Shown here piece by piece: positions 1 through 53,800 of a DNA stretch of 64,000 bases. The number at the start of each line of letters is the position of its first letter. Position 1 is the first letter of the stretch. The translations under genes were made by a program, and so were the position numbers. Source of the DNA: Candidatus Omnitrophota bacterium (GTDB lineage: Bacteria > Omnitrophota > Gorgyraeia > Zapsychrales > Zapsychraceae); the NCBI GenBank assembly GCA_029261055.1, contig JAJDCA010000044.1:77867-141866 (forward strand). The letters are read 5' to 3'. The notes beneath the pieces were generated by a model. The model was not told the origin of the DNA, did not search any database, and saw nothing but the letters and a program-made list of their open reading frames with translations.

Positions 1-89
1 GAATAAAGTTATGCGTGGCCCACATCCTGAACGCTCAAACTGCATGCAATGTCATGTAAAAGGGCCAAGGAGGGAATTTTGACAAAATT
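1..89 (+). CDS. 3' end of an upstream gene; C-terminal fragment ends ...NCMQCHVKGPRREF*, containing a CxxCH haem-binding motif (partial, gene starts upstream of window)
   Basis: Frame-2 reading from window start runs without a stop to a TGA at about 87-89 and encodes a CMQCH motif; only the last 29 codons are visible. Confidence 0.25.
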
Positions 90-513
90 AACCATTGAAG
101 ATGGTCGTAATGCCTTAACAGGCCATATTTATGAAAAGGCACTTGCGATTCAAAAAAAATATGGTAATGTAAGTGAATACAACACCTTATGTGAATTGTT
201 GAAAGATTCCGATTTTGTACGCTACCCGACGCGCGTTGAATTTAATTCCGCTCTTATTGAACGAGGCACATTTGCTACGGCACGGTTGGTATCTGACAAA
301 CCGTCTGACGGTTATGTCATATTTGTCCATTCCTATTTTAAAGACAAATTAGAATATGTGCCGCCGCTTGTTTTGTATCATTTGGTAACAGTGAATTACG
401 GTGATTTTGCCTCGTCTACGGATGCCGAACTTTTCGGAGCGACCATTTTAGGTTTAGAAAAAGAAGAATATTATCAATTTATTTGTCAATTAGCAGATCA
501 AATAGAAATATGA
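49..513 (+). CDS. hypothetical protein (154 aa), no recognisable motif; ATGA stop/start overlap with hemA suggests translational coupling
   Basis: ORF track; stop TGA 511-513 overlaps the ATG at 510 of hemA. Confidence 0.45.
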   Translation: MSCKRAKEGILTKLTIEDGRNALTGHIYEKALAIQKKYGNVSEYNTLCELLKDSDFVRYPTRVEFNSALIERGTFATARLVSDKPSDGYVIFVHSYFKDKLEYVPPLVLYHLVTVNYGDFASSTDAELFGATILGLEKEEYYQFICQLADQIEI

Positions 514-1550
514 ACATTATCACCATAGGTATTAATCACAAACACACCCCCATCGCTATTCGGGAAAAGTTTTATTTAACCGAAACCGAGCGCGACCTAC
601 TTTTAAGTGACCTTAAAAATAATCCGGCCGTCATTGAAGCTTTTGTACTTTCGACATGTAACCGCATTGAAATTTATGCCCATGTTTTGGATGTTCAAAT
701 GGATTTAACACCCTTTCTTAAGTTAATCTTTCAAATTAAAAAACAAATCATGCAACAAGATTTGCTGGAACATTTTTACCATTACCGAGGACAAGCGGCC
801 ATTGAACATCTTTTAACGGTTGCGACAAGCCTTGATTCTATGGTGATTGGCGAAAAACAAATTTTGGGACAGGTCAAATCTGCCTTTGAAAGAGCACGAG
901 AGAGAGGCCTTTTTGGAAAATATTTCAACATCCTTTCCAACTCAGCCATTCGTGCCGGCAAAAAAGCGCATAATGAGACGGATATCAGTCATGGCGGTTC
1001 ATCTGTCAGCTGGGCTGCGATTGCCAAGGCGCAAGAAATATTTGGTTCGTTAAAAGATAAATCTATTGTCATCATCGGTGCCGGAAAAATGAGCAAATTA
1101 GCGGCCGGACAAGTTCAAAATAAAGACTTTAAAAAGCTGTATCTCATGAATCGCACACAAGCGAATGCTGAGAAATTAGCTCAACAATATGGTGGGGAGG
1201 CCGTCGGTTTTTCAGATATTAAGGAAATTCTTACTTTGATTGACATCTGCATCTGTTCAGCCGGCGCTCCACATCATATTTTAGATAAAGATACTGTACA
1301 AAAAATCATGAAATTACGTGAAAACCGCCCCTTATTATTCATCGATATCTCCATGCCCCGCAATATCGATCCAAAAGTGGCCGAAATCCCAGGCATCCAA
1401 CTTTACACTATTGACGACCTCCAAGAATTCGTCAACCACAGCATGAAAAGACGCGAAAAATCCATCCACCAAGTCCAATCCATCATCCGCAGCAAAATCA
1501 GTGAATTTTCTGAAAAAATCGAGAAAATTCAGCCTGCATTACAGTCATAA
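510..1550 (+). CDS. hemA: glutamyl-tRNA reductase
   Basis: Translation contains the VLSTCNRIEIY catalytic-Cys motif and the NADPH-binding GAGKM region; the track ORF starts at a TTG at 483, the ATG at 510 (MNIITIG) is the probable start. Confidence 0.9.
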   Translation: MNIITIGINHKHTPIAIREKFYLTETERDLLLSDLKNNPAVIEAFVLSTCNRIEIYAHVLDVQMDLTPFLKLIFQIKKQIMQQDLLEHFYHYRGQAAIEHLLTVATSLDSMVIGEKQILGQVKSAFERARERGLFGKYFNILSNSAIRAGKKAHNETDISHGGSSVSWAAIAKAQEIFGSLKDKSIVIIGAGKMSKLAAGQVQNKDFKKLYLMNRTQANAEKLAQQYGGEAVGFSDIKEILTLIDICICSAGAPHHILDKDTVQKIMKLRENRPLLFIDISMPRNIDPKVAEIPGIQLYTIDDLQEFVNHSMKRREKSIHQVQSIIRSKISEFSEKIEKIQPALQS

Positions 1551-1725
1551 CTCATTAAAATTAAATGTAATTACATCTTTATTTAAAAAAAATACGTTTT
1601 TTTGGCCCCAGACCTTGTTTTTTGGCTTCTCAATATGTTATAGTTAAAATATAGCCATTTTTTGAAAAGAAAGCCTTTTCTTTGAACAACTTATCAAATA
1701 ACTATACTTTCAGGAGAACAAAACC

Positions 1726-4700
1726 ATAATAACCAAAATTCATCAAACGAAAACACATTTAGCATACCGCCTGTTATCCGCCTTTGTAGCCCTAACCTTT
1801 GCCTTCAGCCTCATCATACCGCCTTCATCTATATACGCCCAAAGCGTGCCACAGACTGTGCTTAATCTGCCGGTGCCTGGCGTAATGATATCGGCTACAT
1901 CAACTTTCACTCCAGCGATTATTCAAGGTGTAACAATACATCCGGATAATCCTCTATTATTTGATTTTATTTTGGATCCAGGAGATTCCAATCTTCAAGA
2001 GGAAGAATTGAAAGATGAAGCCACCAAACTTATCAAATATTTTCTGGCTTCACTAACTGTAAAAGAAGAAGACTTCTGGGTGAACCTTTCTCCCTATGAA
2101 AAAGACCGCATTATCCCGCAAGCATTGGGTGATACAGAAATGGGTCGTGATATGCTTGCACAGGATTATCTCTTAAAGCAGCTAACTTCTTCATTAATGT
2201 ATCCGGAGGAGGAAATAGGTGAAGAATTTTGGCAAAGAGTACATGAAAAAGCCTATGAAAAATTTGGCACAACCGATATCCCCATGAATACCTTTAATAA
2301 AATTTGGATTGTACCGGAAAAAGCAGGCATCTATGAACATGAAACTAGCGCCTTTGTTACCGATACTCACCTAAAGGTTATGTTAGAAGAAGATTATGTA
2401 GCATTACAAGAGAATCTTGGTGTTGAAGAATATGGCCTTGATAGTATTACCAAGGAAGAGTCTACTATCATCAGTGGTGTTTCTTCAGAAGTAATTCGTG
2501 ATGTTTTGCTTCCTGAGATAGAAAAAGAGATTAATCAGGGGGCAACCTTTGCTAATCTGCGCCAAATTTATAATTCTATGCTCCTTGCCACATGGTACAA
2601 GATGAGGATCAAAGAAAATCTTTTAGGTAAAGTCTACGTAGACCAGAGCAAAACCAAAGGTATTGATACAGATGACAAACAGATTAACCAAAAAATTTAT
2701 ACTCAATATCTTGAAGCATTCAAAAAAGGTGTGTATGACTACATGAAGGAAGACTATAACCCTAATACGAAAGAAATTATTCCCAGAAAATATTTTTCAG
2801 GTGGGCACGATATTGTACACGTACGAGATAAAATTAAACTCAAGACTGATGATGCCGCCCTTGCTCAAGAAATTGCGATTGATTCTGAGGAAAAAATTAC
2901 GATTAGAGCCGGTTTGGAAGAACATAATAAAAAAATAACCGTGGCTATTAAAAATTTTGATAACGCAGCATTGACTATTCTTGATCATCCATTAAAAGAT
3001 AGTATCAAAGAGGAAACAAGAAAAGATAAATTAGTCGGTCGTTGGGTGAAAGATGCCGAAGTTTCTTACTATAAAATGCTTAATCTTTTTCTTCCTACTT
3101 TTTTAGATCAACATAAGAATAAACTAGAGACAATAAAAGATAAAATTGAAACGGTCGCTGATTATTTAAATAGAGAATTTAGCAAAGAAATGGAAGAAGA
3201 CGGTGTAAAAATTGAAGGAGCTTATAATCTTGAATATGTTAAAAAAGTTATTGAAGCAGAAATGAAGTATACAATCTATAAACCAAAACTTGAGAATTTA
3301 GAAAAAATAAAAGGAATGCATGATCGAAAAGAAATTTTCCCAAATGAAATTAAGCTTAATGATCAATATAAATTAACAATTCCGAAAGGTCTAAAGGTAT
3401 TTAGCACAGGAGTTTGGCCTCAAAAAATTGATCCTTACACGACTGGACATGATGAAATGGGAACAAATTGGATACTGTTGCACAGTTTATCGACGGTTTT
3501 TTACATTGGCGATAAACTTGATTTTAGAAAAGACGAATTAAGTTCTATTTATCTTCGTGAACCAATAATAAAAAGAATGGAAGAAAATGGATTATCACCT
3601 CTGATACGATATCTTCCCATTATGGAAACAGATCAAGATGTGTGGGGTAGCGTGGGAGAACAAACCTTTCTTTTCAAAGTGCTTCCTAAAATTGTTGAAA
3701 CTAATTTGAAAGATATAATGAATTTATTGTTGTTCGAACTAGGTTATGGGGCTGGCGTGGATCATATGCAAATGTTTTATGAAAATAAAGATGGGACTCC
3801 AAATCTAAATAAACCTGATGTTCCTGGAATTTTCTTTAATTTTGTTAAAACTATTCTTGATGTTTATGCTCAGGGTGACAAAAATCACCAATATTATAAA
3901 TTAGCCCAACTTTTGGCTCCACTCTTTTTAAGCGGAAAACTAAAAATACCTTTATTTTTTTCAGGACGCGATGCGGATCGAACAAAATTTACTCCAGAGC
4001 AACTTCAGTCTGTCATAGATAAGGTTAATACTCTCGTTGATGATCAGGGGAAGCCCATAATTAAAATTGCTTATAAATTTCAAAATCCTGCTATTTCTTC
4101 TACAGATATCAGAAAGAATAGACTTTTTTGGAAATTGCCTGATCCTGTAAAATCCGCGATACAAGCATTTAAATTCCCTCGATGGGGATATGAAATAACT
4201 AAAGAAGATGGTGATTTAGAAAACCAACAAAATCAAGTGGCCGAAGAACTTAAAGTAATTTTTAATCAATATTTTACAGGAGTACTTGACCAAGGTTTTA
4301 TTAAAAATACTATTCGTGAAAAATTAAAGAATGCGCTGGGAATAGCCTTAAATGAATTTGACGCCCATTTTCTCAATGAATTGTTAATAGGGTATACGCT
4401 CAAAAAAAGAGATGATGAGAAAGGTCAACCTACGGAATCACTTATTACTTTCGATCATCTTAACGAACGCGGGACAAGGGTGTTAAAGGAGTATAAAGAA
4501 TTAATAAATAAACATAATATAGATAAAAATGGAGAAGAAGAACTTTTAAATTTTATAATAGAAGTCCAAACTGAACTTCTTGCCCCAAGAAGCGTTGAAA
4601 TTTATGAAAAAGGTTCACAAATAATTCCAAAGGAAACTGTTGATGTAGTTGGCCAAAATAGGGTTGACACTATTATAAAAAATACAACTGACTTTCTCGT

Positions 4701-5049
4701 TGATAACGCTTCTATTGCGACTATTAATACAACTGGTGGTATTAATTTTAATCCGGCACAGTATGATTTACAGATTAAGCGGGATATGAGCGGGGCACCT
4801 TTACCTTTTGAAATGCAGCCTTTTGAAAATATTAATGTTGATGGTTTTATTCCTTACATTATCCAACTCGGCCCGGCCAATGTCCCGGCTATCCTTGGGC
4901 TTTCCACACCCTGTTCAGATCAGGAAGAGCAAGACCAGGATTGTGATAATAATACTCCACAGGGACCCAAGCCTGTAGAAGTGAGTTATCAATATTATCG
5001 GGATCCTATGGATGCAAGGCAGGATCACGACTATCTTTCTCTTATTTGA
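1726..5049 (+). CDS. giant secreted paralog P1 (about 1107 aa): conserved N-terminal family domain + unique centre + conserved C-terminal motif; probable ATA (non-ATG) initiation
   Basis: Track ORF 1846..5049 (GTG). The same frame is open back to 1702 and encodes a signal peptide (IITKIHQTKTHLAYRLLSAFVALTFAFSLIIPPSSIYAQS) that aligns residue-for-residue with the signal peptides of P3/P4. AGGAGA at 1712-1717 lies 8 nt before the ATA at 1726. Confidence 0.8.
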   Translation: MITKIHQTKTHLAYRLLSAFVALTFAFSLIIPPSSIYAQSVPQTVLNLPVPGVMISATSTFTPAIIQGVTIHPDNPLLFDFILDPGDSNLQEEELKDEATKLIKYFLASLTVKEEDFWVNLSPYEKDRIIPQALGDTEMGRDMLAQDYLLKQLTSSLMYPEEEIGEEFWQRVHEKAYEKFGTTDIPMNTFNKIWIVPEKAGIYEHETSAFVTDTHLKVMLEEDYVALQENLGVEEYGLDSITKEESTIISGVSSEVIRDVLLPEIEKEINQGATFANLRQIYNSMLLATWYKMRIKENLLGKVYVDQSKTKGIDTDDKQINQKIYTQYLEAFKKGVYDYMKEDYNPNTKEIIPRKYFSGGHDIVHVRDKIKLKTDDAALAQEIAIDSEEKITIRAGLEEHNKKITVAIKNFDNAALTILDHPLKDSIKEETRKDKLVGRWVKDAEVSYYKMLNLFLPTFLDQHKNKLETIKDKIETVADYLNREFSKEMEEDGVKIEGAYNLEYVKKVIEAEMKYTIYKPKLENLEKIKGMHDRKEIFPNEIKLNDQYKLTIPKGLKVFSTGVWPQKIDPYTTGHDEMGTNWILLHSLSTVFYIGDKLDFRKDELSSIYLREPIIKRMEENGLSPLIRYLPIMETDQDVWGSVGEQTFLFKVLPKIVETNLKDIMNLLLFELGYGAGVDHMQMFYENKDGTPNLNKPDVPGIFFNFVKTILDVYAQGDKNHQYYKLAQLLAPLFLSGKLKIPLFFSGRDADRTKFTPEQLQSVIDKVNTLVDDQGKPIIKIAYKFQNPAISSTDIRKNRLFWKLPDPVKSAIQAFKFPRWGYEITKEDGDLENQQNQVAEELKVIFNQYFTGVLDQGFIKNTIREKLKNALGIALNEFDAHFLNELLIGYTLKKRDDEKGQPTESLITFDHLNERGTRVLKEYKELINKHNIDKNGEEELLNFIIEVQTELLAPRSVEIYEKGSQIIPKETVDVVGQNRVDTIIKNTTDFLVDNASIATINTTGGINFNPAQYDLQIKRDMSGAPLPFEMQPFENINVDGFIPYIIQLGPANVPAILGLSTPCSDQEEQDQDCDNNTPQGPKPVEVSYQYYRDPMDARQDHDYLSLI

Positions 5050-5095
5050 GCAAGATATTCTTTACTGTTACTGCTGAACAAGATGAGGAAACTAA

Positions 5096-8000
5096 ATGAT
5101 CTCCACTCGCTTACCAAACAGACTGGTGGTTTTCGTTATTATTCCGGCTTTTTGTTTCAGCTTGATTATTTTCCCGCCAACATCCTACGCTCAAAACGTT
5201 CTTAACCTTCCACAACTGGGAAGTATGGTTTCTATGAGTCCCGGCTTTAATCCAAGCATCATTCGAGGAATCACTGTCCACCATGATAATCCATTACGCT
5301 TTGATTTTATAGTGGATCGGGGTGATAACCAACTTGACGGTGAAGCTCTAAAGGAACACGGACTAAGGATGGTCAAATATTTCTTAGCCGCACTGACGGT
5401 TCCTGAGAATGAATTGTGGGTTAACCTTTCGCCTTACGAAAAAAATCGAATAATACCGGATACTTTAGGTCGAACAGAAATGGGGCGAGATCTTCTTGCG
5501 CAGGATTATTTACTCAAACAACTAACCGCTTCTTTTATGCATCCGGAGGAAATATTAGGCAAAGATTTTTGGGATAGAATTCACAAAAAAACTAGAGATA
5601 TGTTTGGAACGACGGAAATCCTGATCAACACTTTTAATAAAGTTTGGATTGTGCCGAAAAATGCAATTGTGTACGAAAATGGGCCAAGTGCATTTGTTTC
5701 CAATAGTCATCTGACAGTGATGTTAGAGCAAGACTATTTAGCATTACAAAAAGAAAATAATGTGGAATCTCTTAATGGCGTTGTTGCAGATATTATGAGA
5801 GATGTATTATTGCCTGAAATTGAAAAAGAGGTTAATGAAGGTGAACATTTCGCAAAGTTAAGGCAAGTATACAATTCAATGATTCTTGCGATGTGGTACA
5901 AGCGAAATTTGAAAAAAACACTTTTAGGCCACGTATATGTTGATAAAAATAAGGCAAAAGGAATTGATACCGACGATAAAGAAATCAAACAAAAAATTTA
6001 TGATCAGTATATTGAAGCCTTCAAAAAAGGAGTTTACAACTTTATTAGGGAAGATTATGACACGACAACACACGAGATTATTCCAAAGAAGTATTTTTCA
6101 GGAGGAATGGTTAAACCAGAGCATATGACGATTGAACCTGATTATGCACAACTTGCCCCAGATAATGAGGTACCCATTATAAATGAAATTGGAAATTTAG
6201 CTGTTTTGACAGTCCAAGGGTATGAACTCGGATTAGAATCGAATATTACAGCGGCTAAGTCGAATAAAGAATTCAAGGGGTCAGCAGGAAATTTTTTAAA
6301 AGAATTAGAACTAAACGAAAATCAAAATTTATTAAATAGACTTTTATCGGTGGAAGGCGTCGCTTATTCAGAAATATTAAAATTTCGAGAACCAGATGCT
6401 CAAAGGGCATCTGTGGCTTTAGAGTTGCAAATCTTGGCCGAGACAGTTTTTGAACGGTATACAAAGAATGGTAAAAGTTACTATCGGTTCAGGACGGATA
6501 TTCGTGAACTTCAAATATCACTTGCTGATACACGAAAACTTTTGAATGCAATAAGAAGTATTGATTTTGGAAGAAATGCAAAAATCAGAATTGGAGTCCG
6601 GGGCGAAACCAGACCATTCCATCGTGGAAATCCAAAGAAAGATTTAACGGTTGAACAATTAGATACACTTAAAGGGCGGGTTGATGTGCTTATTTTTAAA
6701 GCCAAAGGTGTTCAAGAGGAATTGCTGGCTTTGGTTGATGAAAACGGAAGATATCTGCGGGCTATCCCAAAATCTCAAAGGGAAACAAATAAGAACCCAG
6801 GTGAGTTTACACAAGGTTCAGTGATTATTGTCACTGATCGACAAGGAAATATTTTAATGCAAGAACGCTCAGATTATAAAATGCAAGGTATTACAAATTT
6901 TGGACCTATGGATTGGACGGTCGGTGGTCATCGTAATCCTGGTGAAACAGTAGAAGAAACTGCTTTACGAGAAGGGGGGGAAGAGACTCGAGGAAAAATT
7001 AATTTTAAATCAGAGCAATTATTTGAAATTGATCAGCGTGCTGTCAACCCTGAGCAGGATACCCGCTGGGTACGAAGGACGTATGTTTATGTTGCCACGG
7101 ATAATGAAAGAGAATCCATCAACCAAAATATGGCAGGAAAAAATTGGAGTACGAATGCCAATGCAGAAGTCAAATCTTTTGCATGGTGGTATCCTGATAA
7201 ATTTGAAGGATCGCTAGACAAAAAGTCATGGTCAACAGTTATAGACTTGTTACGTGATCTACCCAATTTTAATGAAATCATTCAAAAAACAATTGCTTTG
7301 TCTGGAAGTGAAAATGATTCTGCACAAATCGCACCAGTATTATTAACATTACGAAATACTTTATTAAGAATAAATTTTGATAAAACTGATGCAAGGTCAC
7401 ATATGTTAGATGCAAGAAAAATCATTGATGATATTGCAGTAAATTTTGATATTACTTTGGATTATTTAGAACAACTTCGTCAAGCGAAGAATCAAAAAAG
7501 AGGTGGCTTTGAAGAACGCATCATTTTGGATACTAAAGATGGGGAGGATGGAAAAGCCACGCCCGTGAGAAAATTAGTTCGTAACAAAATTCCACAAATG
7601 ATGGTTAAAAATGGACAGAAATTTGTGATACATTTTGCCAGTATGGAAGAATATCAAAACGAATTGTTCGCTAAATTATTTGAAGAATTTATGGAAGTCC
7701 AGAAAGCTGCAAGCAAAGGAAATGCGGATGCGTTGAGTGAGGAGCTGGCTGACCTTTTAGAAGTCATTGCTGCCGTGGAAAATCAAATCTCTTTTAAAAG
7801 TCTTTATTCACCAACTGTTGTAGCATTAGCTTCCTTAAGGCATTATTTTCCAGAGAAATTAAATCAAATTGAGGGAGAAGAGACTGCTCTCAATTGGATT
7901 AACGAATGGTTTATTTCAGAAAATATTTATTCCGGGAAAAATGTAAATGTTCAGTTACCCAAAAATACTCCAGCGTCAATAATTATAAGTCTTGATAAAA

Positions 8001-8242
8001 ATTTAGTAGATCATTTTGATTTATCATTTATTCAAGATGCCTCAACTCTTACAAAATCTGTTGGTGGGATCGATTTGAATCCTGTATTTCTTGACCTACA
8101 ATTTAGAAGAAATTCTAAAGGAGCCCTCCTACCTACAGATCAACAGCCGATTTATGATGTGTCAATAGAAGGAATTTTACCGGTTATCATCAATCTTACA
8201 CCAGCGACACACTTGCTTTTAGAGGTTTCGCAAATAAATTAG
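5096..8242 (+). CDS. giant secreted paralog P2 (1048 aa): conserved N-terminal family domain, central Nudix hydrolase domain, conserved C-terminal motif
   Basis: ATG with GAGGA SD; signal peptide ...PPTSYAQNV; the N-terminal 340 aa align with P1/P3/P4; Nudix box GGHRNPGETVEETALREGGEETRG at about nt 6923-6994. Confidence 0.85.
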   Translation: MISTRLPNRLVVFVIIPAFCFSLIIFPPTSYAQNVLNLPQLGSMVSMSPGFNPSIIRGITVHHDNPLRFDFIVDRGDNQLDGEALKEHGLRMVKYFLAALTVPENELWVNLSPYEKNRIIPDTLGRTEMGRDLLAQDYLLKQLTASFMHPEEILGKDFWDRIHKKTRDMFGTTEILINTFNKVWIVPKNAIVYENGPSAFVSNSHLTVMLEQDYLALQKENNVESLNGVVADIMRDVLLPEIEKEVNEGEHFAKLRQVYNSMILAMWYKRNLKKTLLGHVYVDKNKAKGIDTDDKEIKQKIYDQYIEAFKKGVYNFIREDYDTTTHEIIPKKYFSGGMVKPEHMTIEPDYAQLAPDNEVPIINEIGNLAVLTVQGYELGLESNITAAKSNKEFKGSAGNFLKELELNENQNLLNRLLSVEGVAYSEILKFREPDAQRASVALELQILAETVFERYTKNGKSYYRFRTDIRELQISLADTRKLLNAIRSIDFGRNAKIRIGVRGETRPFHRGNPKKDLTVEQLDTLKGRVDVLIFKAKGVQEELLALVDENGRYLRAIPKSQRETNKNPGEFTQGSVIIVTDRQGNILMQERSDYKMQGITNFGPMDWTVGGHRNPGETVEETALREGGEETRGKINFKSEQLFEIDQRAVNPEQDTRWVRRTYVYVATDNERESINQNMAGKNWSTNANAEVKSFAWWYPDKFEGSLDKKSWSTVIDLLRDLPNFNEIIQKTIALSGSENDSAQIAPVLLTLRNTLLRINFDKTDARSHMLDARKIIDDIAVNFDITLDYLEQLRQAKNQKRGGFEERIILDTKDGEDGKATPVRKLVRNKIPQMMVKNGQKFVIHFASMEEYQNELFAKLFEEFMEVQKAASKGNADALSEELADLLEVIAAVENQISFKSLYSPTVVALASLRHYFPEKLNQIEGEETALNWINEWFISENIYSGKNVNVQLPKNTPASIIISLDKNLVDHFDLSFIQDASTLTKSVGGIDLNPVFLDLQFRRNSKGALLPTDQQPIYDVSIEGILPVIINLTPATHLLLEVSQIN

Positions 8243-9105: not shown

Positions 9106-10470
9106 TTGGACATGTTGATTTCGAGTTTTCAAGACCATCCTTACCTTACACTCTCACTTTTAGCTGTTTTAATTAACATTCCCCTCGGGTACATTCGTGA
9201 AAACTGTCCAAGATTTTCGTTCAAATGGTTTTTTTGGATTCATGCGTCTATCCCGTTTATTGTGTATTTACGTATTGCTTTGGGGACAAGTAAGTTGTTT
9301 ATTCCGATGAGTATTTTTTTGGCAATCATTGGGCAGATGATTGGAAGTCGTTGGCGGCATAAGACAATGACTACGCAGGAATGGGACAAACTCAATCAGA
9401 TAGATTTAACCGTAAACGAACCTCGTAGGTTCGGAAATCCGAACCTACGAGGTTCGTTTACGGTTGTGCTTTTGAACATGGGGGGGCCGCGGACTAATGA
9501 AGATGTTCGGGATTTTCAGATTCAGTTGTTTTCTGATGCGCGGCTTATTCGGTTTCCGCTTTCGAAATTATTGCAGCCTTTATTTGCTCGTTTGCTATCA
9601 ACCCTCCGCAATCACAATGCCAAAGCCCGTTATCAACTTATCGGAGGTGGCAGCCCTATATTTAAATCAACGAAACAGCAGGCCCAGGCTTTGGACAAAG
9701 AATTAAAACAGCGAGGCATCAAGAACACCAACGTAACTTTTTCATTTAATTACAGTGAACCCTTGCCTGAAACAACTATTGAAGAGGTCAAGAAATCCGG
9801 AAAAGAATACATCTTACCTTTAAGCCTTTATCCGCATTATTCCGAAGCAACCACTGGTTCTAATATTCATTATTTAAAAAAGGCCGCACAAAAAATTTAT
9901 CCAGAAGTTCAATTTTTGCCTACGCCATCTTATTATTTACATGACGGCTACATTCAGGCTTTTGTGGATCGGATTCATGAACAAATTACACCGGAAGCAG
10001 GGGAGAACTTGGATGATTATTATTTGCTGTTCTCTGCACATAGCTTGCCGCTGTATTTTCTAAAAGAAGGCGATAAATATCCGTTTCAAATCGCGCAAAC
10101 TGTGGGACAAGTCGTTACAAAGCTCGGACGCAAAGATAATTGGAGCATTTCTTACCAGAGCGCTGTCGGGCCTTTGCAATGGGTTAAACCGTACACAGAA
10201 AATATGATCGCGGCCTTAGCAAAAAGAGGGGTCAAAAAACTTTTGATTGTGCCTATTTCATTTGTTACCGACCATATTGAAACATCCTGTGAAATTGACA
10301 TTGAATATCGCCATATGGCGGAAAATTTGGGAATACATGATTTTCGTATGTCCAAAGCCATTGAATGTCATGCCGGATTCATTAAGGCCCTAGCTGATTG
10401 TGTAGAAGACGTTGTCGCGCATGAAAAATCTTCCCAAAGAAAAGTTGAAAAAGAAAAGGTGATTTGCTAA
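9106..10470 (+). CDS. hemH: ferrochelatase with an N-terminal membrane extension of about 110 aa (454 aa total)
   Basis: C-terminal 330 aa carry ferrochelatase signatures (VVLLNMGGP, LSLYPHYSEATTGS, SAHSLP); the N-terminus has 2-3 predicted TM helices; a 27-bp perfect palindrome sits at the domain junction. Confidence 0.8.
   Translation: MDMLISSFQDHPYLTLSLLAVLINIPLGYIRENCPRFSFKWFFWIHASIPFIVYLRIALGTSKLFIPMSIFLAIIGQMIGSRWRHKTMTTQEWDKLNQIDLTVNEPRRFGNPNLRGSFTVVLLNMGGPRTNEDVRDFQIQLFSDARLIRFPLSKLLQPLFARLLSTLRNHNAKARYQLIGGGSPIFKSTKQQAQALDKELKQRGIKNTNVTFSFNYSEPLPETTIEEVKKSGKEYILPLSLYPHYSEATTGSNIHYLKKAAQKIYPEVQFLPTPSYYLHDGYIQAFVDRIHEQITPEAGENLDDYYLLFSAHSLPLYFLKEGDKYPFQIAQTVGQVVTKLGRKDNWSISYQSAVGPLQWVKPYTENMIAALAKRGVKKLLIVPISFVTDHIETSCEIDIEYRHMAENLGIHDFRMSKAIECHAGFIKALADCVEDVVAHEKSSQRKVEKEKVIC
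9408..9465. repeat. perfect 25-27 bp inverted repeat (ccgtaaacgaacctcgtaggttcgg / aaat / ccgaacctacgaggttcgtttacgg) lying in-frame inside hemH
   Basis: Arms 9410-9434 and 9439-9463 verified as exact reverse complements; GC-rich relative to surroundings; encodes ...TVNEPRRFGNPNLRGSFTV... linking the membrane domain to the ferrochelatase domain. Confidence 0.85.
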
Positions 10471-10479
10471 AGTAACACC

Positions 10480-12174
10480 ATGCCAACACTATCCGAACAT
10501 GATGTTTTTATCTTTGTAGCGCAACTGGGCGTTATTCTTATTTCCGCAAAAATTTTCGGTGAAATTGCCCGAAAATTAGAACAACCCATTATTGTCGGCG
10601 AAGTGATTGCAGGAATCCTGCTTGGGCCGATGTTATTCGGAAAATTTCTTCCAACCTATTACAATTTCTTATTTCCAAATACCGGGGCGCATCAATATCT
10701 TTTACAAGGCATCTCCTGGTTATGTGTTTTATTTTTACTCATGATTACCGGTTTGGAGATTGACTTCAGAGCCTCGATTAAAGAAGGGAAGCAGTGCTTT
10801 TTGATTTCAATCTTTGGACTTGTAATATCCTTAGGTGGCGTATTTCTTGTCACGCCGCTTTTGCCGGATTATTTCTATCCTGATGGGGTCAATCGATTCC
10901 ATGTCAATATGCTCATCAGCATTGCTTTGTCTGTGGTGGCTATCCCAGTCATTGCTAAAATTCTTTTTGATCTCAAAATTTTACGTTCTGAAGTTGGTGT
11001 CAAAATTTTGACGTCAGGAGTTTTAAGTGATATATGGGGATGGACCATCCTTGCGATTGCTATTTCTCTCATAGCCAGCGGCACCATTACAGCCGCCGTC
11101 ATTTTAAAACCGCTGATTACCATGATTCTTTATTTAACGGTTACGTTGACGATTGGCCGTGTCATTATTGATAAAATGCTAGATCTTTTTGGGTACAAAG
11201 AATTAGACACCACGCTGGCCATATCCTTGTTATTTTCACTTATGTTATTAAACGGCGCCGTGGCACATCTTTTAGGAATACATGTTATTTTTGGCGCTTT
11301 TATTGCCGGGGTCATGGCCGGTGAATCCACTAAAATTTCAGAATACATTCGACAATGGACGCAGGAATTTATTTTTGCCGTGTTTGCGCCCATATTTTTT
11401 GTGCTTATCGGTATGCAACTTCAATTTACAAAAGGGGAGATCTGGCTGCCGATCCTTATTTTATTTATTGCATCTTCAATCTGTAAAATTGCCGGCATGT
11501 TTTTCGGAGGTGTCTTGGGAAAAATGGGCCGAAAAAATGCCTTTGCGGTTGCCTGTGGGTTAAATACCCAGGGGACAATGGGTATTATCGTTGCGCTTAT
11601 TGCCTATGACATGGGAATATTTAATGATCATTTATTTTCGACTATTGTTGTTATTTGTATTTTAACCTCCCTTTTTGTCGGTCCCCTTTTGAAATGGGCC
11701 ATCGCAAGAGTGAAAAGGCCTTTGGCTAAATTTTTTGATCAAGAGCATGTTTTCTTAAATGTAGAAGGCGATTCAAAAAAGAAAGTTATCGAAAATATCG
11801 CAAAATTAATGGCTGAACGAAAAATTATTGATAATGAAGAATACATCCAGAAAATGATTTGGGAACGGGAACGTGTCATGAGTACGGCGATTGGGGATGG
11901 CATTGCCGTTCCACATGCCCGTATTAAAAATTTAAAAGAACCTATTCTATGTTTTTTTCGGCTCAAAGATCCCGTAGACTTTGCCAGCCCGGATAATCTT
12001 CCGGTGCAGTTATTGTTTTTAGAATTAACCGATCGCAATGATGATGGTATGCAATTAAATCTTATTGCTCAAATTGCCCGATTTATTTCAGCGGCAGACA
12101 ATCGTCAGCGCCTGCTCGATTGTGAAAAAGAAGAAGACATCCATCACATCCTAAGTTTTGATGAAAAAGTCTGA
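10480..12174 (+). CDS. monovalent cation:proton antiporter (CPA-type, about 12 TM) fused to a C-terminal PTS EIIA(Ntr/fructose)-type regulatory domain
   Basis: N-terminal 400 aa polytopic Na+/H+ exchanger-like; C-terminal 150 aa has the EIIA-2 signature DGIAVPHARI with a conserved His. Confidence 0.8.
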   Translation: MPTLSEHDVFIFVAQLGVILISAKIFGEIARKLEQPIIVGEVIAGILLGPMLFGKFLPTYYNFLFPNTGAHQYLLQGISWLCVLFLLMITGLEIDFRASIKEGKQCFLISIFGLVISLGGVFLVTPLLPDYFYPDGVNRFHVNMLISIALSVVAIPVIAKILFDLKILRSEVGVKILTSGVLSDIWGWTILAIAISLIASGTITAAVILKPLITMILYLTVTLTIGRVIIDKMLDLFGYKELDTTLAISLLFSLMLLNGAVAHLLGIHVIFGAFIAGVMAGESTKISEYIRQWTQEFIFAVFAPIFFVLIGMQLQFTKGEIWLPILILFIASSICKIAGMFFGGVLGKMGRKNAFAVACGLNTQGTMGIIVALIAYDMGIFNDHLFSTIVVICILTSLFVGPLLKWAIARVKRPLAKFFDQEHVFLNVEGDSKKKVIENIAKLMAERKIIDNEEYIQKMIWERERVMSTAIGDGIAVPHARIKNLKEPILCFFRLKDPVDFASPDNLPVQLLFLELTDRNDDGMQLNLIAQIARFISAADNRQRLLDCEKEEDIHHILSFDEKV

Positions 12175-35344: not shown

Positions 35345-35938
35345 ATGTTAATTCCATACACTGTTAAACCAAGAGAAGATACCGGTATGTACAATGCCAA
35401 ATTGGGCATTTGGCTATTTTTAGCTTCCGAAGTCATGCTGTTTGGTGGATTATTTTCTGCTTACGTTATTCTTCGCGTCGGAGCCGGTGATGCTTGGCCT
35501 GTTGGGGCCAGTATTTTAAATGTACCCATTGGAGCTTTTAACACACTTCTTCTCATTACATCAAGTCTGACCATGGTCTTTTCGTGGATCGCCTTAAAAC
35601 AAAAAAATCTTGATAAATTCAAAAGAAACATGGGGATAACCATCCTGCTAGCCTTGGCCTTTCTGGTCATCAAAGGCTTTGAATACAATGCAAAATTTTC
35701 CCATCAGATGTTCCCTAGTAAAAGCACATTTCTCGCCATTTATTTTACGTTAACAGGTTTACATGCCCTTCACATTATTGGCGGCATAATCGTTAATGCT
35801 TATTTCTGGGGACCGGGAAGAAAAATGTGGTACAGCGATCCAGAAAGATTCACAAATCGTATTGAAATTGCCGGCCTGTATTGGCATTTTGTGGATTTAG
35901 TTTGGATATTCTTATTTCCAGTACTCTATTTATTGTAA
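35345..35938 (+). CDS. ctaE: cytochrome c oxidase subunit III
   Basis: 5 TM, 197 aa, position after subunit I. Confidence 0.8.
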   Translation: MLIPYTVKPREDTGMYNAKLGIWLFLASEVMLFGGLFSAYVILRVGAGDAWPVGASILNVPIGAFNTLLLITSSLTMVFSWIALKQKNLDKFKRNMGITILLALAFLVIKGFEYNAKFSHQMFPSKSTFLAIYFTLTGLHALHIIGGIIVNAYFWGPGRKMWYSDPERFTNRIEIAGLYWHFVDLVWIFLFPVLYLL

Positions 35939-44836: not shown

Positions 44837-47800
44837 ATGAATATTTATCTCGAAAAAAGAAAGACCTGTTTGCTGTACCGCATTCTTGCCGCTTTTATTT
44901 GTTTCACCTTTATTTTTAGCAGCATCATACCCCCACAAAGGGCCCAGGCCCAGGTTATGCCTACTTCAGGAACCATTTTGAATCTACCGGTGCCGGGAAC
45001 CATGGTACCGGCAACCGATGCCTACCAGCCACCGATTATCCGTGGCGTAGCGCTCAACCCGGAAGATCCTCTCAACCTTAATTTCATCATCGACCGTGGC
45101 GATAACAGATTGGAAGGCAAAGACTTAGAAAATGAATCCCAAAAACTTATCAAATATTTCCTGGCTGCTCTTACTGTACCGGAAGAAGAAATGTGGGTTA
45201 ACCTTTCCCCCTATGAAAGTGACCGTATCATCCCCAATACCTTTGGCGACACCGAGATGGGGCGCGACCTTCTAGCACAAGATTATATGCTTAAACAACT
45301 TACAGCATCACTCATGTATCCGGAAGAAGAATTAGGTGAAGATTTTTGGGCCAAAGTGTATGATCGCGCTTATGAAGAGTATGGCACCACCGATATTCCC
45401 ATGAATACCTTTAATAAGGTCTGGATTGTACCGGAAGAGGCCGAAGTGTATGAATATGATGCCAATGCTGTGGTCACCAAAAGCCGCCTCAAAGTCATGC
45501 TGGAGGAAGATTATGTGGCCTTGCAGAACAATCTGGGTGTCGATGAATTTGGCCTCAATAGCCTTTCTGCCGAAGATGCCGGCATTACCAGTGGCATTTC
45601 GTCTGAAGTCGTCCGCGAAATCATCCTGCCAGAAATCGAATGGGAAGTGAACCATGGCAAAACATTTGCCAACCTACGCCAAATTTACAACTCCATGATC
45701 CTGGCCACCTGGTACAAAGAAGCCCTGACAGAAAGTTTTTTAGGTCAAGTTTATATCGATCAAAACAAAACCGAAGGCGTGGACACCCAAGACAAACAGA
45801 TCAACCAAAAAATCTACAAACAATACGTCGAAGCCTTTAACAAAGGTGTGTATGACTATATTAGAGAAGATTATGACCCCACCACAGAACTGATTGTGCC
45901 GAGACGATATTTTTCCGGGGGAGCGGCAATGAGGACGAGTAAAAAATTAAACGTTATCGATATCGCGATGCTCCCTACTAGTTTTATTAATCGTGCTGCT
46001 GCTGGTGTAAGCGAATTACAACTACCAATACTTGAAGACACCGAAACCGTGCCGGACGATCTTACGGAAATGGATAAAATTGATCCTCTCGCTAGCGAAA
46101 GCGTGCCGGATTATCTTTCAGAAACAGATATCCCAGTACAGCCATTGACTCTCTCCGAAAAATTCTCTGAATTTACTAAATCTCTCGAGGGAGGAGATAT
46201 TGTCAGTGCTTCAAAAGAACTCGGAGAACTAAAAGGTCATATTGATAATCTACAGAATGTTGAACGTAAAAAAGTAGCTAAAAGTTTGAATAAAAAATTA
46301 AATAACTTTAAAAAACAACTTGATAAACTCGAAAAAATAAACAGAACTATTATAAAGAAAAGAGTCCGCGACATAAAAGATTTAAATGCTATGCCAATGG
46401 GCATAGAAAATAGCGAAGAAATTAACTATTTGATCAGCAAATTAGAAAATTTTCTGGCAACTGGAGAATTAAATTTAAAAGAATTAGAAGAATTCAAAAC
46501 ATCTTATAGCACCTCAGGGTTTAAAAGCATACGTGAATTTATTGCAAACCACCCCCGCCTAGAAAAAGGATCTAAACTTGCTGTTTTAACTGTTATCGCG
46601 CTAAGCACCGCCGTGTCCATGGGCGCTGCGGCAACTCAAAGTGAAAGCCCACAAGAATTTATCAAAAATTTAATTAATGTAGACACAGATCTAAACAACA
46701 CAGCCGTAGCTAATCTCCTTGAAATCCCTGAAATTAAAGAACTCGGCGAACGGTATCTCGCGGGAGAACTCACAGAAAAAGAATATGAAAGTCTAGCCGA
46801 AACCCTAAAAAATGGAAATCCAGAAATACAAAAACTTATTGTCACAATTTATCAAACCGCCCTTGCCCAAAATATCGATCTTGATGAACAGGGAAGCGAA
46901 GCCTTACAAGAAAACCAAAGCAACCCTCTAAGTCTCTTTGCACGTACAGAAAACTGGGTGTCCAATCAGCTTGATTCAGACCTTGAGGCTGGAGCACTTA
47001 CTGAGGATTCCCCTGCAAACATCCATACCTTAAATCCCCAAGAAGTGCGTAACGTTATGGATGGACTTGATGATATTGATTATGAAGAATCACCTGATGC
47101 AATTAAAAAAGCTATTAAAGTTGTAACTAATTATCTTAATTTGGACTCAACCGACCCTACTAACGATAAAGTTACTCAAGGTAATATTAAAATAGCTTTT
47201 AAAATTTTGGATAAAATTGTTGATCAGAATGAAAATAACATGACTCCTGATATGAAAGCAGCAACATCAGCAGATTTAATATCGTATATACAAGACTCAC
47301 AAAATTCAGCTGACAATATAATTTCTGCTATAAAATTGGTGTCTGAAATCGGGGGGGAAAATAATTTAGAAGAATTAAAAACATTTAATAAAGATTTAAA
47401 AAATAAATACGAGAAATCAGTAAATGAAGGCAAACAATTAGAACAAGAACTTAAACAACTTAAACGAAATTTAGATAATAATCCTTATCCCAAGGGGAGC
47501 TTCGCACGTGATATAGATCAAAATACTTACGATAATACATTGGAGAGTCTAAAAGTAAATCAAGATAATATTAAAAACTTAGATAAAATCATCGACACAA
47601 TGGGTGATGTTATTAACGACATAACTGAACGGGAAGGAATAGTTGATCACCAGAAGATTAACGAACTAAAAAGCCAAGAAACTAAACTACAAAAAGAAAT
47701 CGAACAATCAGTTTCAGAAGTCAAGCAATTAAAAGAAGAACTCAAGCAACTCAAACAAAATTTAGATAATAATCCTTACCCCAAGGGGGACTTCGCACGG

Positions 47801-50800
47801 GATATAGATCAGAATACTTACGATAATACAAAAGATGCGTTAGAAGATAAAGAAGGTGACTTAAAAAAACAGCAAGACCAATTAAAAGTTGTTGAAAAAT
47901 CACTTAAGCAAATTGAAAAAGGTAACCAAGGAGACGGACTACTAACGCGAGGAGTTAAGGCCGTTACAGGTGCAGCTAAAACTGTGGTTAATGTCATCAG
48001 CGGGGATGATACACAAGAATCACCCACCGCTGAGACAATAGAAAAAATACGTGCTGATTTACAGAAAAAGGCGTTGTCAGACTTAAGATCTAATGAATCT
48101 AGTGTCCGGCGTGCAGCGGTGAATCTACTGAGTGATATTGGAGACGAAGAGGCTATAAAAAGACTCGATAAAATAGCAAACAATGACACAAACCCTGTAA
48201 TCAAAATCGAAGCTAGTACAGCTTTGGATAACATACAAGAAAGAGCTGGTGAACCTCCTTCGACAATCGCTACCGATGAAGTTATCAAGCAACTTGAGTC
48301 TAAACTGCAGCAGCTGGAAGAAGACGCCCCCCTAAACCCAGATGGCACGACCAAGACATTATCAGACTTTCCCCATCCCGGGGGGACGAAGGCGAACTAC
48401 GGAGACTTTATGGAATATGGCCGACAACGTGCTGCCATCGATGAATTACAGTCACAGATTGACGACCTTAAAGAAATTCTTGCCTCATTTACCACCGCAT
48501 CTGCAGGCGGCGAAGCAGCCGGAGGAGGCGATGGAAGCGGTGGTCCAGATGATGATGATAAAAAATCTAAAGAAGCTTTGAAAACACTACCTTCTGTTTC
48601 ACAAATAACAAGTACGCATATAGCAAATATAGAAAATTCATCAGATGAATCGGTAAAACAAGAGTCTCTTAAAGTATTAACTCGTGCAGCTCTAGATGGC
48701 ATACTCTCTGAAAAAGATATTAAAAACGTGATAGCGACAATAGAGGAATTACCTACCCCGGATGGCATAATTGAAAAGGAACAGGCGTATACCATTAAGA
48801 TGCAAACAAAAGTTCTAGAACTTATGCAAGATATTTTAAACCGGATGGATTCTGATAATGATAGGCAGAAATCCCTGTCAACAGTAACAGAACTCAGCAA
48901 GTCTGATTTGGGAATACCTGCGAATTCTTCCGTAAACACACTTGGCACTGGCCAATTTGCTGGTAATATTGAGAACGTAAAGGATCTCTTTGTTGATAGC
49001 TTTAAAACGGCTGGAGACTCCTTGCCTGAATTAATGAAAATGTCTGCTTCCCCTACTAATACTCTTAGTAACCCACGCATTGGGAGTAGCTTTTTTTCAG
49101 AATCCGGCGTCGAAAAATTTGCTGACATTCCATTTGATTTAAATGATTCCTCCGACCGCTGGCTTCTCAATAAGGTTGTATCTTTTTTAGAAACAAATGT
49201 CATATCTTCCGATGTCGACGACTACTTCAAAACGAACATTATTAAAGCTTTAACAGCGTTAGGATTACCCCGAAGCATTGACGTTATATCCAGCATAGAT
49301 ACGACGGATATCGATCTAAAACAAGACATTGAAAAAACTATCACCACATTGCAACAACGCTGGGGAATAACTCCCCCCAGTAACATTGTTCCAGAAACTG
49401 AAGACCAGGCTAATACGAAACTGACAGAAAGACTTCATCAATTTGATAATTCTAAAGTTAGAGCCTTAACCCCAGACATCGTAAATGATGCTATAAAAGG
49501 AATGGATCATCCGGATAACGAAACAAAACAAACGGCCATACACATCATAGGGGACGTTTTGGGTTCGAAGATACCTGTCCCTGATGAGGTCATAGATAAA
49601 CTTATTGCAAGCACAGGCACCTCCACACCTGAACTGCAAGTGCCATCCTTTAAAGCGCTCTTTGAAGGAGCGCTAAACAATAAAATTTCGCAAGAAAATA
49701 TCGAAACAGTACAAAGTATGCCCTATGATCCAACCTCTGATGCGCAAAATAGAGATAGAGAAATTCTTATTGAAATTTATCAAGTGAAACAAAATATAAC
49801 GGATGTACAGATGAACAATGATGCACCGCTTGTTCAAAAAACAGCCATCACGGATTTAGAAGAAAAAATAAAAAAAACAACTGGTAGTAATATTCCAATA
49901 CTTAGAGATCGTCTAATACCCGAAGCCCTGGAAACCTTAGTGGCACAAACTTATAATCCGAATGTTGAGACCTCTGTTCGTGAACACGCTATCATCTCTG
50001 TAGGCAATCTAGCTGATTCAACTCCTGGTATTACGCATGAAAATTTTAAAAACTACATACCGGAAGGATCTAATAAGTCTATTGGAGAAACATTAACCTA
50101 TCTGGCAACAAATGATCTGGATGAAGGCGTTCAAAACGCAGCCAAGGAGGCTCTGAAAAAAATTGATCTTGTTTCGACTGCTCCAACCGTGATACTATCT
50201 CCAAAACCAGTAGAAATTCCCACACCAACAGAAAATGCAGAAATCAAAGCACAAATCAACGAAATATCCTCAATAGATCCTACAAATTTCACAAGCGATG
50301 ATATCACAGCTGTCGTAGCAGGAATTGAGCATCCTACAAAAGAAATACAAAAAGCAGCTGTGGAAAAGGCGGGGGACATAATTGAAAATAATAAAAAACC
50401 TCCTCAGCAACTGGTCGATGGATTTATAAAGAACCTAACAGATGATACGGGGAAGAATAATATTCCAATATATAATGAATTACTCAATGCCATAAGGCAA
50501 GATAAAGTACTTACCGACCAGGGTGATACTCTTCGTAAAATTGCAAACGATGATAATGATCCGCGCAGCTCTGTAGCAAAAAACTTTCATGATGATTATC
50601 TCTTGCACCAAGAAATTTTTAAATTATCCTCAGATTCATTAAAAGACAATAGTTTTGGGCGAACGACTATTATATACAATTTACAAGAATTTATAATTAA
50701 TAGCCAAACACTTGAGCACCTCTCGGGAATAGATGCTATTGCCAAGTTGGCAATTGACGATAGTAATTTCCTTGTGAGAGAAGTAGCCGTAACTGTTTTG

Positions 50801-53800
50801 GGCAGCCTCACCGATGTCGACAGGTTTTCAAATATTAAAGATCATAAACCCGAAGGAGTAGGTGGTACGATCGAAGATATTGTCAAAGCTATCGCAACCG
50901 CCAGCATTGAGTCAGGATTAACCAACGATGAAAAAGAAGCGGCCCAAGATCTAAAAACAGCGGCCCAGGAGGCATTAGTTAAGCTTCAATCATCTACTCA
51001 AAGCGCGAAACCGACAATAACACCGGGGCCGACAGAAACAGCATCGCCTACACCAACACCAGGACCATCCCCAACTCCAAACGCGACTCCAGATCCGACA
51101 TCAACTGATGATACGGCTAATTTAGAAAACTTTAATACTAAAATTTCAAAAATTAATGATGAGATGAAAATTTTTAAACATAAATATGCTAACAAGGATA
51201 TACCTGAAGCTGAAGCACAACAAATACAAATACTTTTAAAAGAAATGAAAAATCTTGTCAAAAATACAATAGAAAAAGGCAACGTAACTCCAGAAATGGT
51301 AGATCAAATAAATACTACTAGTAGTACATTTAATATTCACGGTGTTTTGAAAGTCGATTCGCATGAAGACTATACAGGAACACACGGGGAAAAATTAAAT
51401 ACAAATTTAGTTATATATCTAGATAATGACGGATATATTACTGCAGACAAAATTGAAATACCTGATCCTTCACCTACTCCGAGCGCAACACCGACATCAA
51501 CACCAATAGTGACACCAACACCAACTCCGGAAGGTAACATGCAGCTATTGGCGAACATATATGCAAACATGAAACCCAAGGATGCGGCAAACCTTATGTC
51601 TAACATGGATACTGAAACAGCAAAAAAAATGATCCCTTTAATGCCTCAAGAAAAAGTAACAAAAATTCTTGAATTGATGGATCCCCTACAAGCAGAAAAT
51701 ATCAATCCTCAAACAACACCAACCACGGAAGCAGAAATCGGCTCTAAAATTGACGATTTACTTGAGTCTCTTAGCAAGCCGATTGATGGTAAAAAAGATC
51801 CAAAAAATTATGGTACAGACAAAAAGCCCATGTTTGCCCTTTCTATCGTGGGAATTTCTCCTGACACGCAATCGCGAGAAAGCGTTATCGATGAACTTGT
51901 TGTATTGGCTAAGAATAACCCAGAGGCTACGAATCAAATATTAACGAAGCTTTTTGATCACAAGTATATCCAAAGTCATCTCGACAAAAACAATCAATCC
52001 TTAGCCCCCTTGATCAGTATACTTGAAAGAATTGATCCAGGATTAAAGCTGGTGGAGGATAAAATTCAAACGTTAATCAATTCACCAAACCTGGATGTTT
52101 CCACCGCTGGAAATATTTTTCTTCTCTCGCAAACCCTTGAGGTTAAAGGGATTTATGAAGAGTTTAAAAATGTATTGAGTGCAATAGACCGTTCAGACAC
52201 AAACAGTTTAAAAAACGATATAGAAGCACTATTGCGTGAAGTATTTCAATTTTTCTATGATGACAATCAAGACAAAAAGGATCTCCGCATTGAAAAAAAT
52301 GTACAAGATAATATTGTAAAAATTGGCAACCTACTCAAAGATATGGCAAAGCAGAATCCTGAGCAACTGACAAGCGCTAAGGCGTATGACATCATCGATA
52401 ACGCGGATTATTTAACCCTGGACGATAAAAATAGAATCAAAGCTCAAATTTCAACTGGGCAGGGTTATTATGCTATTGTATATTTACTTCTAGTCGGCGT
52501 CGTCGGCAGTATAAGCGGAGCTATTTTAATACAAAGAAAGAAATCTTTTAACAAAAAGCTAGCCGCTATCCATGACGCTATTGTAAAGGACAAACATTAT
52601 TTAACAGCCATAACTCTTTTTAATGATGAAAAATTTAAGGGCCGAAAACGCCGCCAAGTCATACAACATATTCAAACTATTGCTGATAATCAAAACAATC
52701 AGTTTGAACGTACTGTACAGTCACTCGCTCAAAGCATTTTGCAAGAAATTCAATCTGGCGGTGATGATAACGACCTTAAAAAAATTGTTGTTAAGACGCC
52801 TTCCAATACCTCAACTGATGGCGGAGAATCAGAGGAGAAAACTGCTGTAGACTTGATCTCTCGGGGAGAAACTCAAATTACTGAGGTACTGAACCTTGTT
52901 AGTACTTCAAAATGGACAAACGAGAAAGCGACTTGGATAAGAAGCAGTGCGGCACTTTTGCGTAAATTAAGAAATAATTTTGAAAAACAATTAACCTTAC
53001 TTAATCCCACAGATGCAAAAAAAGCAAAAATTATGTTAATGTCTCAACTTAAAACTCTTTCTAAATATTCAAACCTACAATGGACGAAAGAAAATTTTAA
53101 AAATGAAAAAAAATTCTTAGAATCAGTCGTTAACACTTATCAATCTTCGATTGAATCGAGCACACAATTTTCCATACATCAACAACAGCTCCAAACTATT
53201 AGTATGCTTAACACCTTATTCCTCTTTATGGGACGAACACATGAGTTGCCTCATTCTGAAATAACCTTAGAGCCAAAAGAGAAAATTGTGGATGGATTTA
53301 CAGGCTTACCACCAGAGGAAGTGACAGAAGTACATAAAGATATTTTCTCTATCCTCAATGATTGGGCGGTTGACACTGTTGTTGGTAAAGCAGCTTTAAA
53401 AGTACCGGGTTTTGCTACGAAAGACTCTGTTATTGGAATTGAATATAATGGAGAGGCCTTTGCTATTCGTATGAAAGAAAATAACAAGCATGAAGGTATA
53501 AATGTTGTTGTGGGTGGTAAAAAATTTATTGTCCCAGTATGTCCTCTTTGTCAATATGTCGCCTTTGACGCAGATGATCTTGCCAAAAACATGGGGTTTG
53601 AAGGAGAAGATGTGGTTGGCTTTGTTTCCGGACTTTTACGGCAAACTGGCCTTAATCATCCAAATGGTTTCGGTGTAATGCTTTTAGGTGAACGTAGTTC
53701 ACAAAATTTGATTTCCTTACACAAAAGAATGTTTCTCACCGGCCCTAACAAAGGAGAACCACTTAAGGTCCATCCAATTACACTCACAACATTAAATGAA

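Follow-up and report, generated by a model that had tools for sequence, protein, structure and literature searches.

ATA at the initiator-methionine position of a gene for a modular protein in an Omnitrophota bacterium

Where does translation begin in a gene whose open reading frame (ORF) has no ATG, GTG or TTG at the place where its relatives start? This question is raised by P1, a gene located near the beginning of a 64,000-nucleotide stretch of DNA from a Candidatus Omnitrophota bacterium (assembly GCA_029261055.1, contig JAJDCA010000044.1, positions 77,867 to 141,866 of the forward strand; hereafter the window, with positions counted from its first letter). P1 encodes a member of a modular protein family and carries ATA where the family has its initiator methionine. 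A preliminary description of the locus left two options: either ATA (or ATT) serves as the initiator, or P1 has lost its start together with its signal peptide. Both options were kept in this work, while most other alternatives were removed by the alignment of the family, by the intact Shine-Dalgarno (SD) sequence, by the absence of SD sequences at the internal starts and by a second assembly available from Logan. We assign a probability of about 0.5 to the reading that P1 is an intact gene which underwent a real ATG-to-ATA substitution and is still translated from AUA at a reduced level. The start region is composed of the following features:

1699-1701, forward strand: in-frame TAA, the upstream bound of the P1 open frame.
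1712-1717, forward strand: SD sequence AGGAGA, read directly from the DNA, with a duplex energy of -7.4 kcal/mol.
1726-1728, forward strand: ATA at the family initiator-Met position, placed by alignments; proposed near-cognate start or start-codon lesion (G to A at 1728).
1726-1839, forward strand: signal-peptide-like N-terminus, residues 1-38, with a +3 n-region, the h-region LSAFVALTFAFSLII and PPSSIYA before QS.
1726-5049, forward strand: P1 coding sequence as proposed, 1107 codons and a stop, with no internal stop or frameshift.
GTG 1846, GTG 1858, GTG 1873 and ATG 1885, forward strand: internal in-frame canonical codons, none of them with an SD sequence.

As had been described, the P1 frame is open from position 1702, directly downstream of the in-frame TAA, and not one of the 48 codons from 1702 to 1845, before the GTG at 1846, is ATG, GTG or TTG. 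The two TTGs found in this stretch (1784 and 1799) are both out of frame. This start-less extension, whose translation preceding GTG 1846 is IITKIHQTKTHLAYRLLSAFVALTFAFSLIIPPSSIYAQS, is the longest among the real genes of the window, and no other real gene in the window has a long open extension of this kind. From 1726 onwards the first codons are ATA ATA ACC AAA ATT, with the second ATA at 1729.

In a 21-sequence alignment the ATA at 1726 shares a column with the initiator Met of two paralogues encoded in the window, P3 (start at 44837), which begins MNIYLEKRKTCLLYRILAAF, and P4 (start at 55646), which begins MNNYLHFRQKNLGYRILAVF. This is in agreement with the preliminary description, except that the distance between the Met and the hydrophobic core is about 15 residues and not 20 as was stated there. 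The ATA was placed in the Met column also in a 34-sequence alignment, where M1 is nearly invariant, and in a 123-sequence alignment, where 99 of the 103 occupied rows have Met in this column. Furthermore, BLASTP paired residue 1 of P1 (Ile) with residue 1 (Met) of the database protein P0002, its closest homologue, and the corresponding DNA (AGGAGG, 5 nt, ATG ATT TCA) contains ATG at the residue aligned to ATA 1726. At the second P1 codon, which is ATA as well, the residue most often present in the family column is Ile. Because ATA 1726 lies in the Met column and codon 2 in an Ile-rich one, the ancestral start of P1 was probably ATG ATA ACC (M-I-T), from which the present sequence would differ by one G-to-A change at 1728. 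Both the family alignment and P0002, the nearest relative in the cargo region, point to 1726 as the ancestral start.

The SD sequence AGGAGA at 1712-1717, separated from ATA 1726 by an 8-nt spacer, was already noted in the preliminary description. Its duplex with the 3' tail of 16S rRNA, assumed to be canonical (ACCUCCUUA) in all our calculations, has an energy of -7.4 kcal/mol. This value beats those of 88% of the 26 ATG-start genes of the window, and a duplex of such strength occurs at only 2% of random positions. The AGGAG core is present with a frequency of 6.4e-4 per position, which gives an expectation of about 0.005 for an 8-nt window. The spacing is similar to that in nearby SD-bearing genes (TAGGAG and 9 nt in P3; GAGGAGA and 10 nt in the gene at 35345), and the initiation region is fully open, with a minimum free energy of 0 kcal/mol for positions 1690-1770. 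The combination of a start-less frame, an SD sequence and a match to the family profile is more than chance. In total, three features of a near-cognate start are present at this locus: a codon with one mismatch at the homologous Met, a ribosome-binding site, and no canonical alternative.

The sequence read from ATA 1726 has the appearance of a signal peptide. Its anatomy was checked by rules for Sec-type signals, in which the h-region is required to have 7-16 residues. P1 has a positive n-region (net charge +3), a hydrophobic h-region of 15 amino acids with a mean Kyte-Doolittle hydropathy of 2.41, and small residues near the cleavage site. In the AF2 (AlphaFold2) model of P1 residues 1-400, residues 12-30, comprising the h-region, form a helix. 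Residues A38 and Q39 are invariant or nearly so across the family alignments, and cleavage of the signal peptide is predicted from this anatomy. With 83 bits against a leave-one-out family profile, P1 residues 2-40 score above 77% of the members (median 69). In its +3 n-region, its h-region of 15-16 residues, its Pro-rich c-region and its small residue at position -1 (IYA before Q), P1 resembles the substrates of signal peptidase I, while the n-region of the family differs from theirs in its unusual length (about 15 aa) and in its conservation (M-I/N-x-Y-I-x-K-R-x-x-L-x-Y-R).

To establish how other members of the family start, we surveyed 88 genes (80 loci taken from representative genomes of GTDB, four obtained by look-up and the four family genes of the window) by aligning their stop-to-stop translations to the profile of the N-terminus. 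In 87 of them ATG, GTG or TTG is present upstream of the hydrophobic segment, the sole exception being P1. The nearest start is ATG in 73 loci, GTG in three and TTG in three, and the remaining eight have an ATG closer to the h-region. Wherever the alignment reaches position 1 of the profile, its codon is ATG (26 of 26 loci). Addition of the genes for P0002, P0119 and P0120 extends the set studied at the DNA level to 91. The canonical starts of the 90 genes other than P1 rule out non-canonical initiation as a habit of the whole lineage; therefore, the ATA of P1 is a single-gene event.

It should be mentioned that, of the 120 top database proteins of the family, about 10 (approximately 8%) look N-terminally truncated, the start having been assigned to an internal Met that lies within the signal sequence or past it. 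For six of these calls (P0006, P0034, P0042, P0089, P0119 and P0120; loci L003-L006, L088 and L089) the DNA was inspected, and ATG or GTG was found at the aligned position in all six. Those truncations are therefore errors of gene callers.

The coding sequence of P1 downstream of the signal-like region consists of three parts:

1846-2805, forward strand: family N-domain, approximately residues 41-360, delimited by alignments.
2806-4734, forward strand: variable cargo, common only to P0002 (47% identity).
4735-4911, forward strand: family C-terminal module (GGINFNPAQYDLQIKRDMSGAPLPFEMQP...GFIPYIIQL...), delimited by alignment.

P1 is colinear with P0002 over 89% of its length, with an overall identity of 47%, and no other database protein has the P1 cargo across the greater part of the length (89% of the query for P0002). 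Residues 1004-1062 of P1 match the C-terminus of P0002 and the C-terminal consensus of the family. Of the 118 near-invariant columns of the N-domain, P1 differs from the family in 4, compared with a family median of about 3, with 8 in the neighbouring paralogue P2 and 6 in P4; one of the deviations is Lys at the nearly invariant Pro113. No second disabling lesion was found in the 3.3 kb of P1. Thus, P1 lacks its canonical start and shows no decay: neither the extra lesions nor the relaxed constraint typical of pseudogenes are present.

How does P1 compare with known cases of unusual initiation? In Escherichia coli, AUU is the start codon of infC and pcnB. Reporter constructs in which all 64 codons were measured in this species yielded 1-2% of the AUG level for AUA, AUC, AUU and CUG, the values for individual constructs extending from 0.02 to 3% (bioRxiv 10.1101/063800); like these near-cognate starts, the P1 codon has a single mismatch for the initiator tRNA. 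In Staphylococcus aureus, natural AUA starts of infC and ccpN were mapped by retapamulin ribosome profiling, an AUA start of citZ was identified as well, and AUA-start reporters gave about 10%, and up to 30%, of the AUG level (PMC13009471). P1 is similar to these three genes in having AUA where homologues have AUG, with an SD sequence upstream, and its translation would be expected to be lowered rather than abolished. It differs from them in that the S. aureus AUA starts were mapped by profiling, have an extended SD sequence and show conservation across strains or species (PMC13009471), whereas the P1 start was read from sequence and has a 5-nt SD core. Unlike E. coli infC, where AUU takes part in an autoregulatory loop of IF3, nothing suggests a regulatory circuit for P1. 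At the sequence level, P1 fits the known class of near-cognate (AUA/AUU) bacterial starts.

In the most likely reading, an ancestral ATG of P1 was converted to ATA by the single G-to-A change at 1728, and 30S subunits would still assemble at the mRNA through the AGGAG SD core and the unstructured initiation region. Since the SD sequence is intact and the initiation region is open, some initiation at AUA 1726 is expected if the mRNA is made. The initiator tRNA would pair with AUA with a mismatch at the third position, at about 1-10% of the AUG level by analogy with model bacteria. The product would be the full P1 pre-protein with formyl-Met and the signal peptide, synthesized at a reduced level, and P1 would be a down-tuned paralogue. 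Here it is initiation from AUA, and its level, that we infer.

Several observations weigh against translation of P1 from AUA. The ATA codon is not favoured in the family, as shown by the 90 canonical starts, and the nearest homologue (P0002, 47% identical) uses ATG. The SD sequence of P1 is a 5-nt core and not the extended SD of the S. aureus AUA starts. Losing one copy may be tolerated in a genome with many paralogues. Finally, no close orthologue of P1 was found either by the database search or by a scan of metagenomes with protein patterns of the cargo region. An exact-DNA scan for the locus with N at the third codon base likewise gave no match. The JGI protein P0122 (56 aa), which is placed with P1 in a 90% cluster, proved to be unrelated to it and represents a clustering artefact; its contig (L002; JGI 3300018878, Ga0187910_10029040) contains Rep, PcfJ, Abi_2 and HTH/S24 repressor genes and has the look of a mobile element.

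The most serious competitor of AUA initiation is that P1 is a very recent start-loss pseudogene, a redundant paralogue that was silenced before its decay began and in which any residual initiation at AUA is biologically irrelevant. Among the 91 family genes studied, P1 alone is devoid of a canonical start, which is the pattern of a one-off deleterious or neutral lesion; the presence of four paralogues in 64 kb means high redundancy, and the Lys at Pro113 points in the same direction. As in start-loss pseudogenes of multigene families, one point mutation removed the canonical start of P1, unique among about 90 relatives; unlike them, P1 has retained its SD sequence and open initiation region and has acquired no second disabling mutation. 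Conservation of its N-domain and of its signal region, which would be untranslated in a silenced gene, is average or better. Moreover, AUA preceded by an SD sequence was measurably translated in every bacterium tested, which makes complete silencing unlikely (bioRxiv 10.1101/063800; PMC13009471). On balance we regard a silenced P1 as possible but less likely than translation from AUA. An opposite extension of the AUA reading, in which AUA is a selected attenuating start, Omnitrophota tune the dosage of individual family members by the identity of the start codon, and P1 is deliberately kept at low abundance, appears doubtful to us.

Could the ATA itself be an error? The window comes from a metagenome-assembled genome, and a single base separates ATA from the ATG of the family, so that P1 would be an ordinary gene if the ATA had arisen through an artefact of sequencing or assembly, or represented a minor allele in a population dominated by ATG. 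However, a Logan contig assembled from run SRR15505515 matches positions 1-8049 of the window (8049 bp) with 100% identity, ATA included; Logan is an independent assembly made with other software, possibly from the same reads as those behind the genome. Because this assembly has the same ATA, an assembly error at 1728 is unlikely. Substitution errors in the consensus are also rare in short-read assemblies, and we consider the artefact or minor-allele explanation improbable, although a polymorphism within the population is conceivable. Translation from one of the internal codons, which would yield a cytoplasmic protein without a signal peptide, appears still less credible. These are the sole canonical codons available, many genes of this genome have no obvious SD sequence, and two public gene calls rely on such codons: the NCBI protein P0001 (1058 aa) starts at GTG 1873 and the Logan protein P0121 (1063 aa) at GTG 1858. 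Nevertheless, the SD duplex energies are +1.9 kcal/mol for GTG 1846, -0.1 for GTG 1858, +0.4 for GTG 1873 and -3.0 for ATG 1885, against -7.4 at ATA 1726. All four starts delete the h-region (with GTG 1846, the n-region, the h-region and PPSSIYA would all be absent), and those at 1873 and 1885, located inside the conserved LNLPVPG motif or past it, cut the invariant LNLPxPG. In addition, conservation at the protein level extends over the 40 upstream codons, and all six inspected truncations of other family members were errors of gene callers.

Initiation by a detour was also considered. A short out-of-frame ORF, with TTG at 1682, 15 codons and TAA at 1727-1729, ends in overlap with ATA 1726 (AUAA), and ribosomes terminating there might re-initiate at P1; but this ORF begins with TTG, has no SD sequence and has nothing comparable in the paralogues, and it is probably fortuitous. 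A frameshift from an upstream ATG is opposed by the fact that the ATGs at 1565 and 1635 each meet a stop within two codons and that there is no slippery sequence. Taken together, re-initiation and frameshifting are highly improbable. The last possibility, a mitochondria-like change of the code with ATA read as Met, is suggested by the alignment of ATA 1726 with Met and by nothing further. Besides ATA 1726, the N-domains of P1-P4 contain 21 ATA codons; these are mostly in columns dominated by Ile, Leu or Val, and none is in a Met column. For example, residue 265 of P1 (ATA) is Ile in 111 of 119 members. ATG codons, in turn, are located in Met-rich columns. ATA is therefore an ordinary Ile codon in elongation, and the change of code is refuted.

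The family to which P1 belongs is a very large one and specific to Omnitrophota. A search with the 1107-aa P1 gave 4420 matches at E < 1e-5 among 8000 scored candidates, and all matches with an organism named by the source belong to Candidatus Omnitrophota. At least 573 family loci were confirmed in GTDB representative genomes. The proteins have a common layout, in which a signal-like N-terminus is followed by the N-domain (about 320 aa), then by a variable cargo and at the end by the C-terminal module (about 60 aa). The N-terminal consensus is M-(I/N)-x-Y-I-x-K-R-x-x-L-x-Y-R-(I/L)-L-S-A-F-I-A-F-T-F-I-F-S...PP...YAQ, the N-domain is marked by the motifs WVNLSPYE and TEMGRDLLAQDY, and the C-terminal consensus is GGINLxPxxLDLQIKRDGxGxPLPxxxQP...GFxPVII. 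P1 has the N-domain with WVNLSPYE and TEMGRD(L/M)LAQDY and the C-terminal GGI(N/D)(L/F)(N/D)P..(L/Y)D(L/M)QIKRD..G.PLP...QP that define a member. No sequence match to Pfam, NCBIfam or PDB was found for the conserved ends of the family, including the N-domain of P1, and a Foldseek search of PDB with the AF2 model of P1 residues 1-400 (mean predicted local distance difference test score, pLDDT, 62; predicted template modelling score, pTM, 0.60) gave no match, the best E being 0.77.

The cargo varies among members and includes phosphoglucomutase (PGM), UDP-glucose pyrophosphorylase (UGPase), glucose-6-phosphate isomerase (PGI), phosphoglycerate kinase (PGK), hexokinase, NUDIX, HEAT repeats, response-regulator receivers and radical SAM. 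These cargos (PGM, UGPase, PGI, PGK, hexokinase, NUDIX, radical SAM and receiver domains) correspond to enzymes with a normally cytoplasmic location. In the cargo of P1 we noticed TTGH (3439-3450) and ISSTDIR (4093-4113), aligned with HVGH and ISSTEIR of P0002. They resemble (H/T)xGH and ISSTxxR, which we take to be signatures of cytidylyl- and adenylyltransferases; no Pfam match was obtained for this nucleotidyltransferase-like domain.

The window holds four members of the family, P1 to P4, of which P2 was absent from the preliminary description. The three paralogues of P1 are:

5096-8242, forward strand: P2, a tandem paralogue with NUDIX/MazG cargo and an ATG start with an SD sequence, located 46 nt past the P1 stop.
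44837-54517, forward strand: P3 (3226 aa), a paralogue whose cargo comprises HEAT and DUF3179, with an ATG start and the SD sequence TAGGAG.
55646-59590, forward strand: P4 (1314 aa), a paralogue that starts with ATG.

Family genes are often found on shared contigs (e.g., L016/L084), and some of them abut (L012/L061 and L030/L036); P1 and P2 are neighbours with a gap of 46 nt.

Upstream of P1 the following site was noticed:

1622-1650, forward strand: promoter-like TTGGCT, 17 nt, TAAAAT; a single match to the consensus, which is not above the level in shuffled sequence.

This site is a weak candidate for a P1 promoter. No terminator-like site was found between hemA, which ends at 1550, and P1. 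The search for tRNA genes in the window gave none. As for other genes of the window, the maximal ORF of the ferrochelatase gene hemH (9106-10470) starts with TTG, and its match to TIGR00109 begins only at residue 118; either the protein is extended at its N-terminus by about 115 aa, or its translation in fact begins far downstream. The gene at 10480-12174 encodes a cation:proton antiporter of the CPA2 type fused to a C-terminal PTS IIA(Ntr)/PtsN-like domain.

If AUA is used in P1, an example from an uncultivated phylum would be added to the short list of natural AUA starts. The case leaves the knowledge of initiation unchanged: it concerns a single gene and gives no sign of a lineage-wide rule. 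Its practical value is the correction of annotation. Both public P1 calls are N-terminally truncated, and with them a protein that is secreted or anchored in the membrane would be wrongly labelled as cytoplasmic.

The modular Omnitrophota family is a more unusual object than the ATA start of P1. Giant 'multi-enzyme' proteins of Omnitrophota have been described that contain about one transmembrane helix per 1000 aa (147 in 147,155 aa), and their Pfam content (PGM, starch synthase, hexokinase, NUDIX, HEAT, receiver and radical SAM) is that of the cargo set of the P1 family (10.64898/2026.06.07.730766). Because the two sets are the same, the giants may represent in-frame concatenations of P1-family units.

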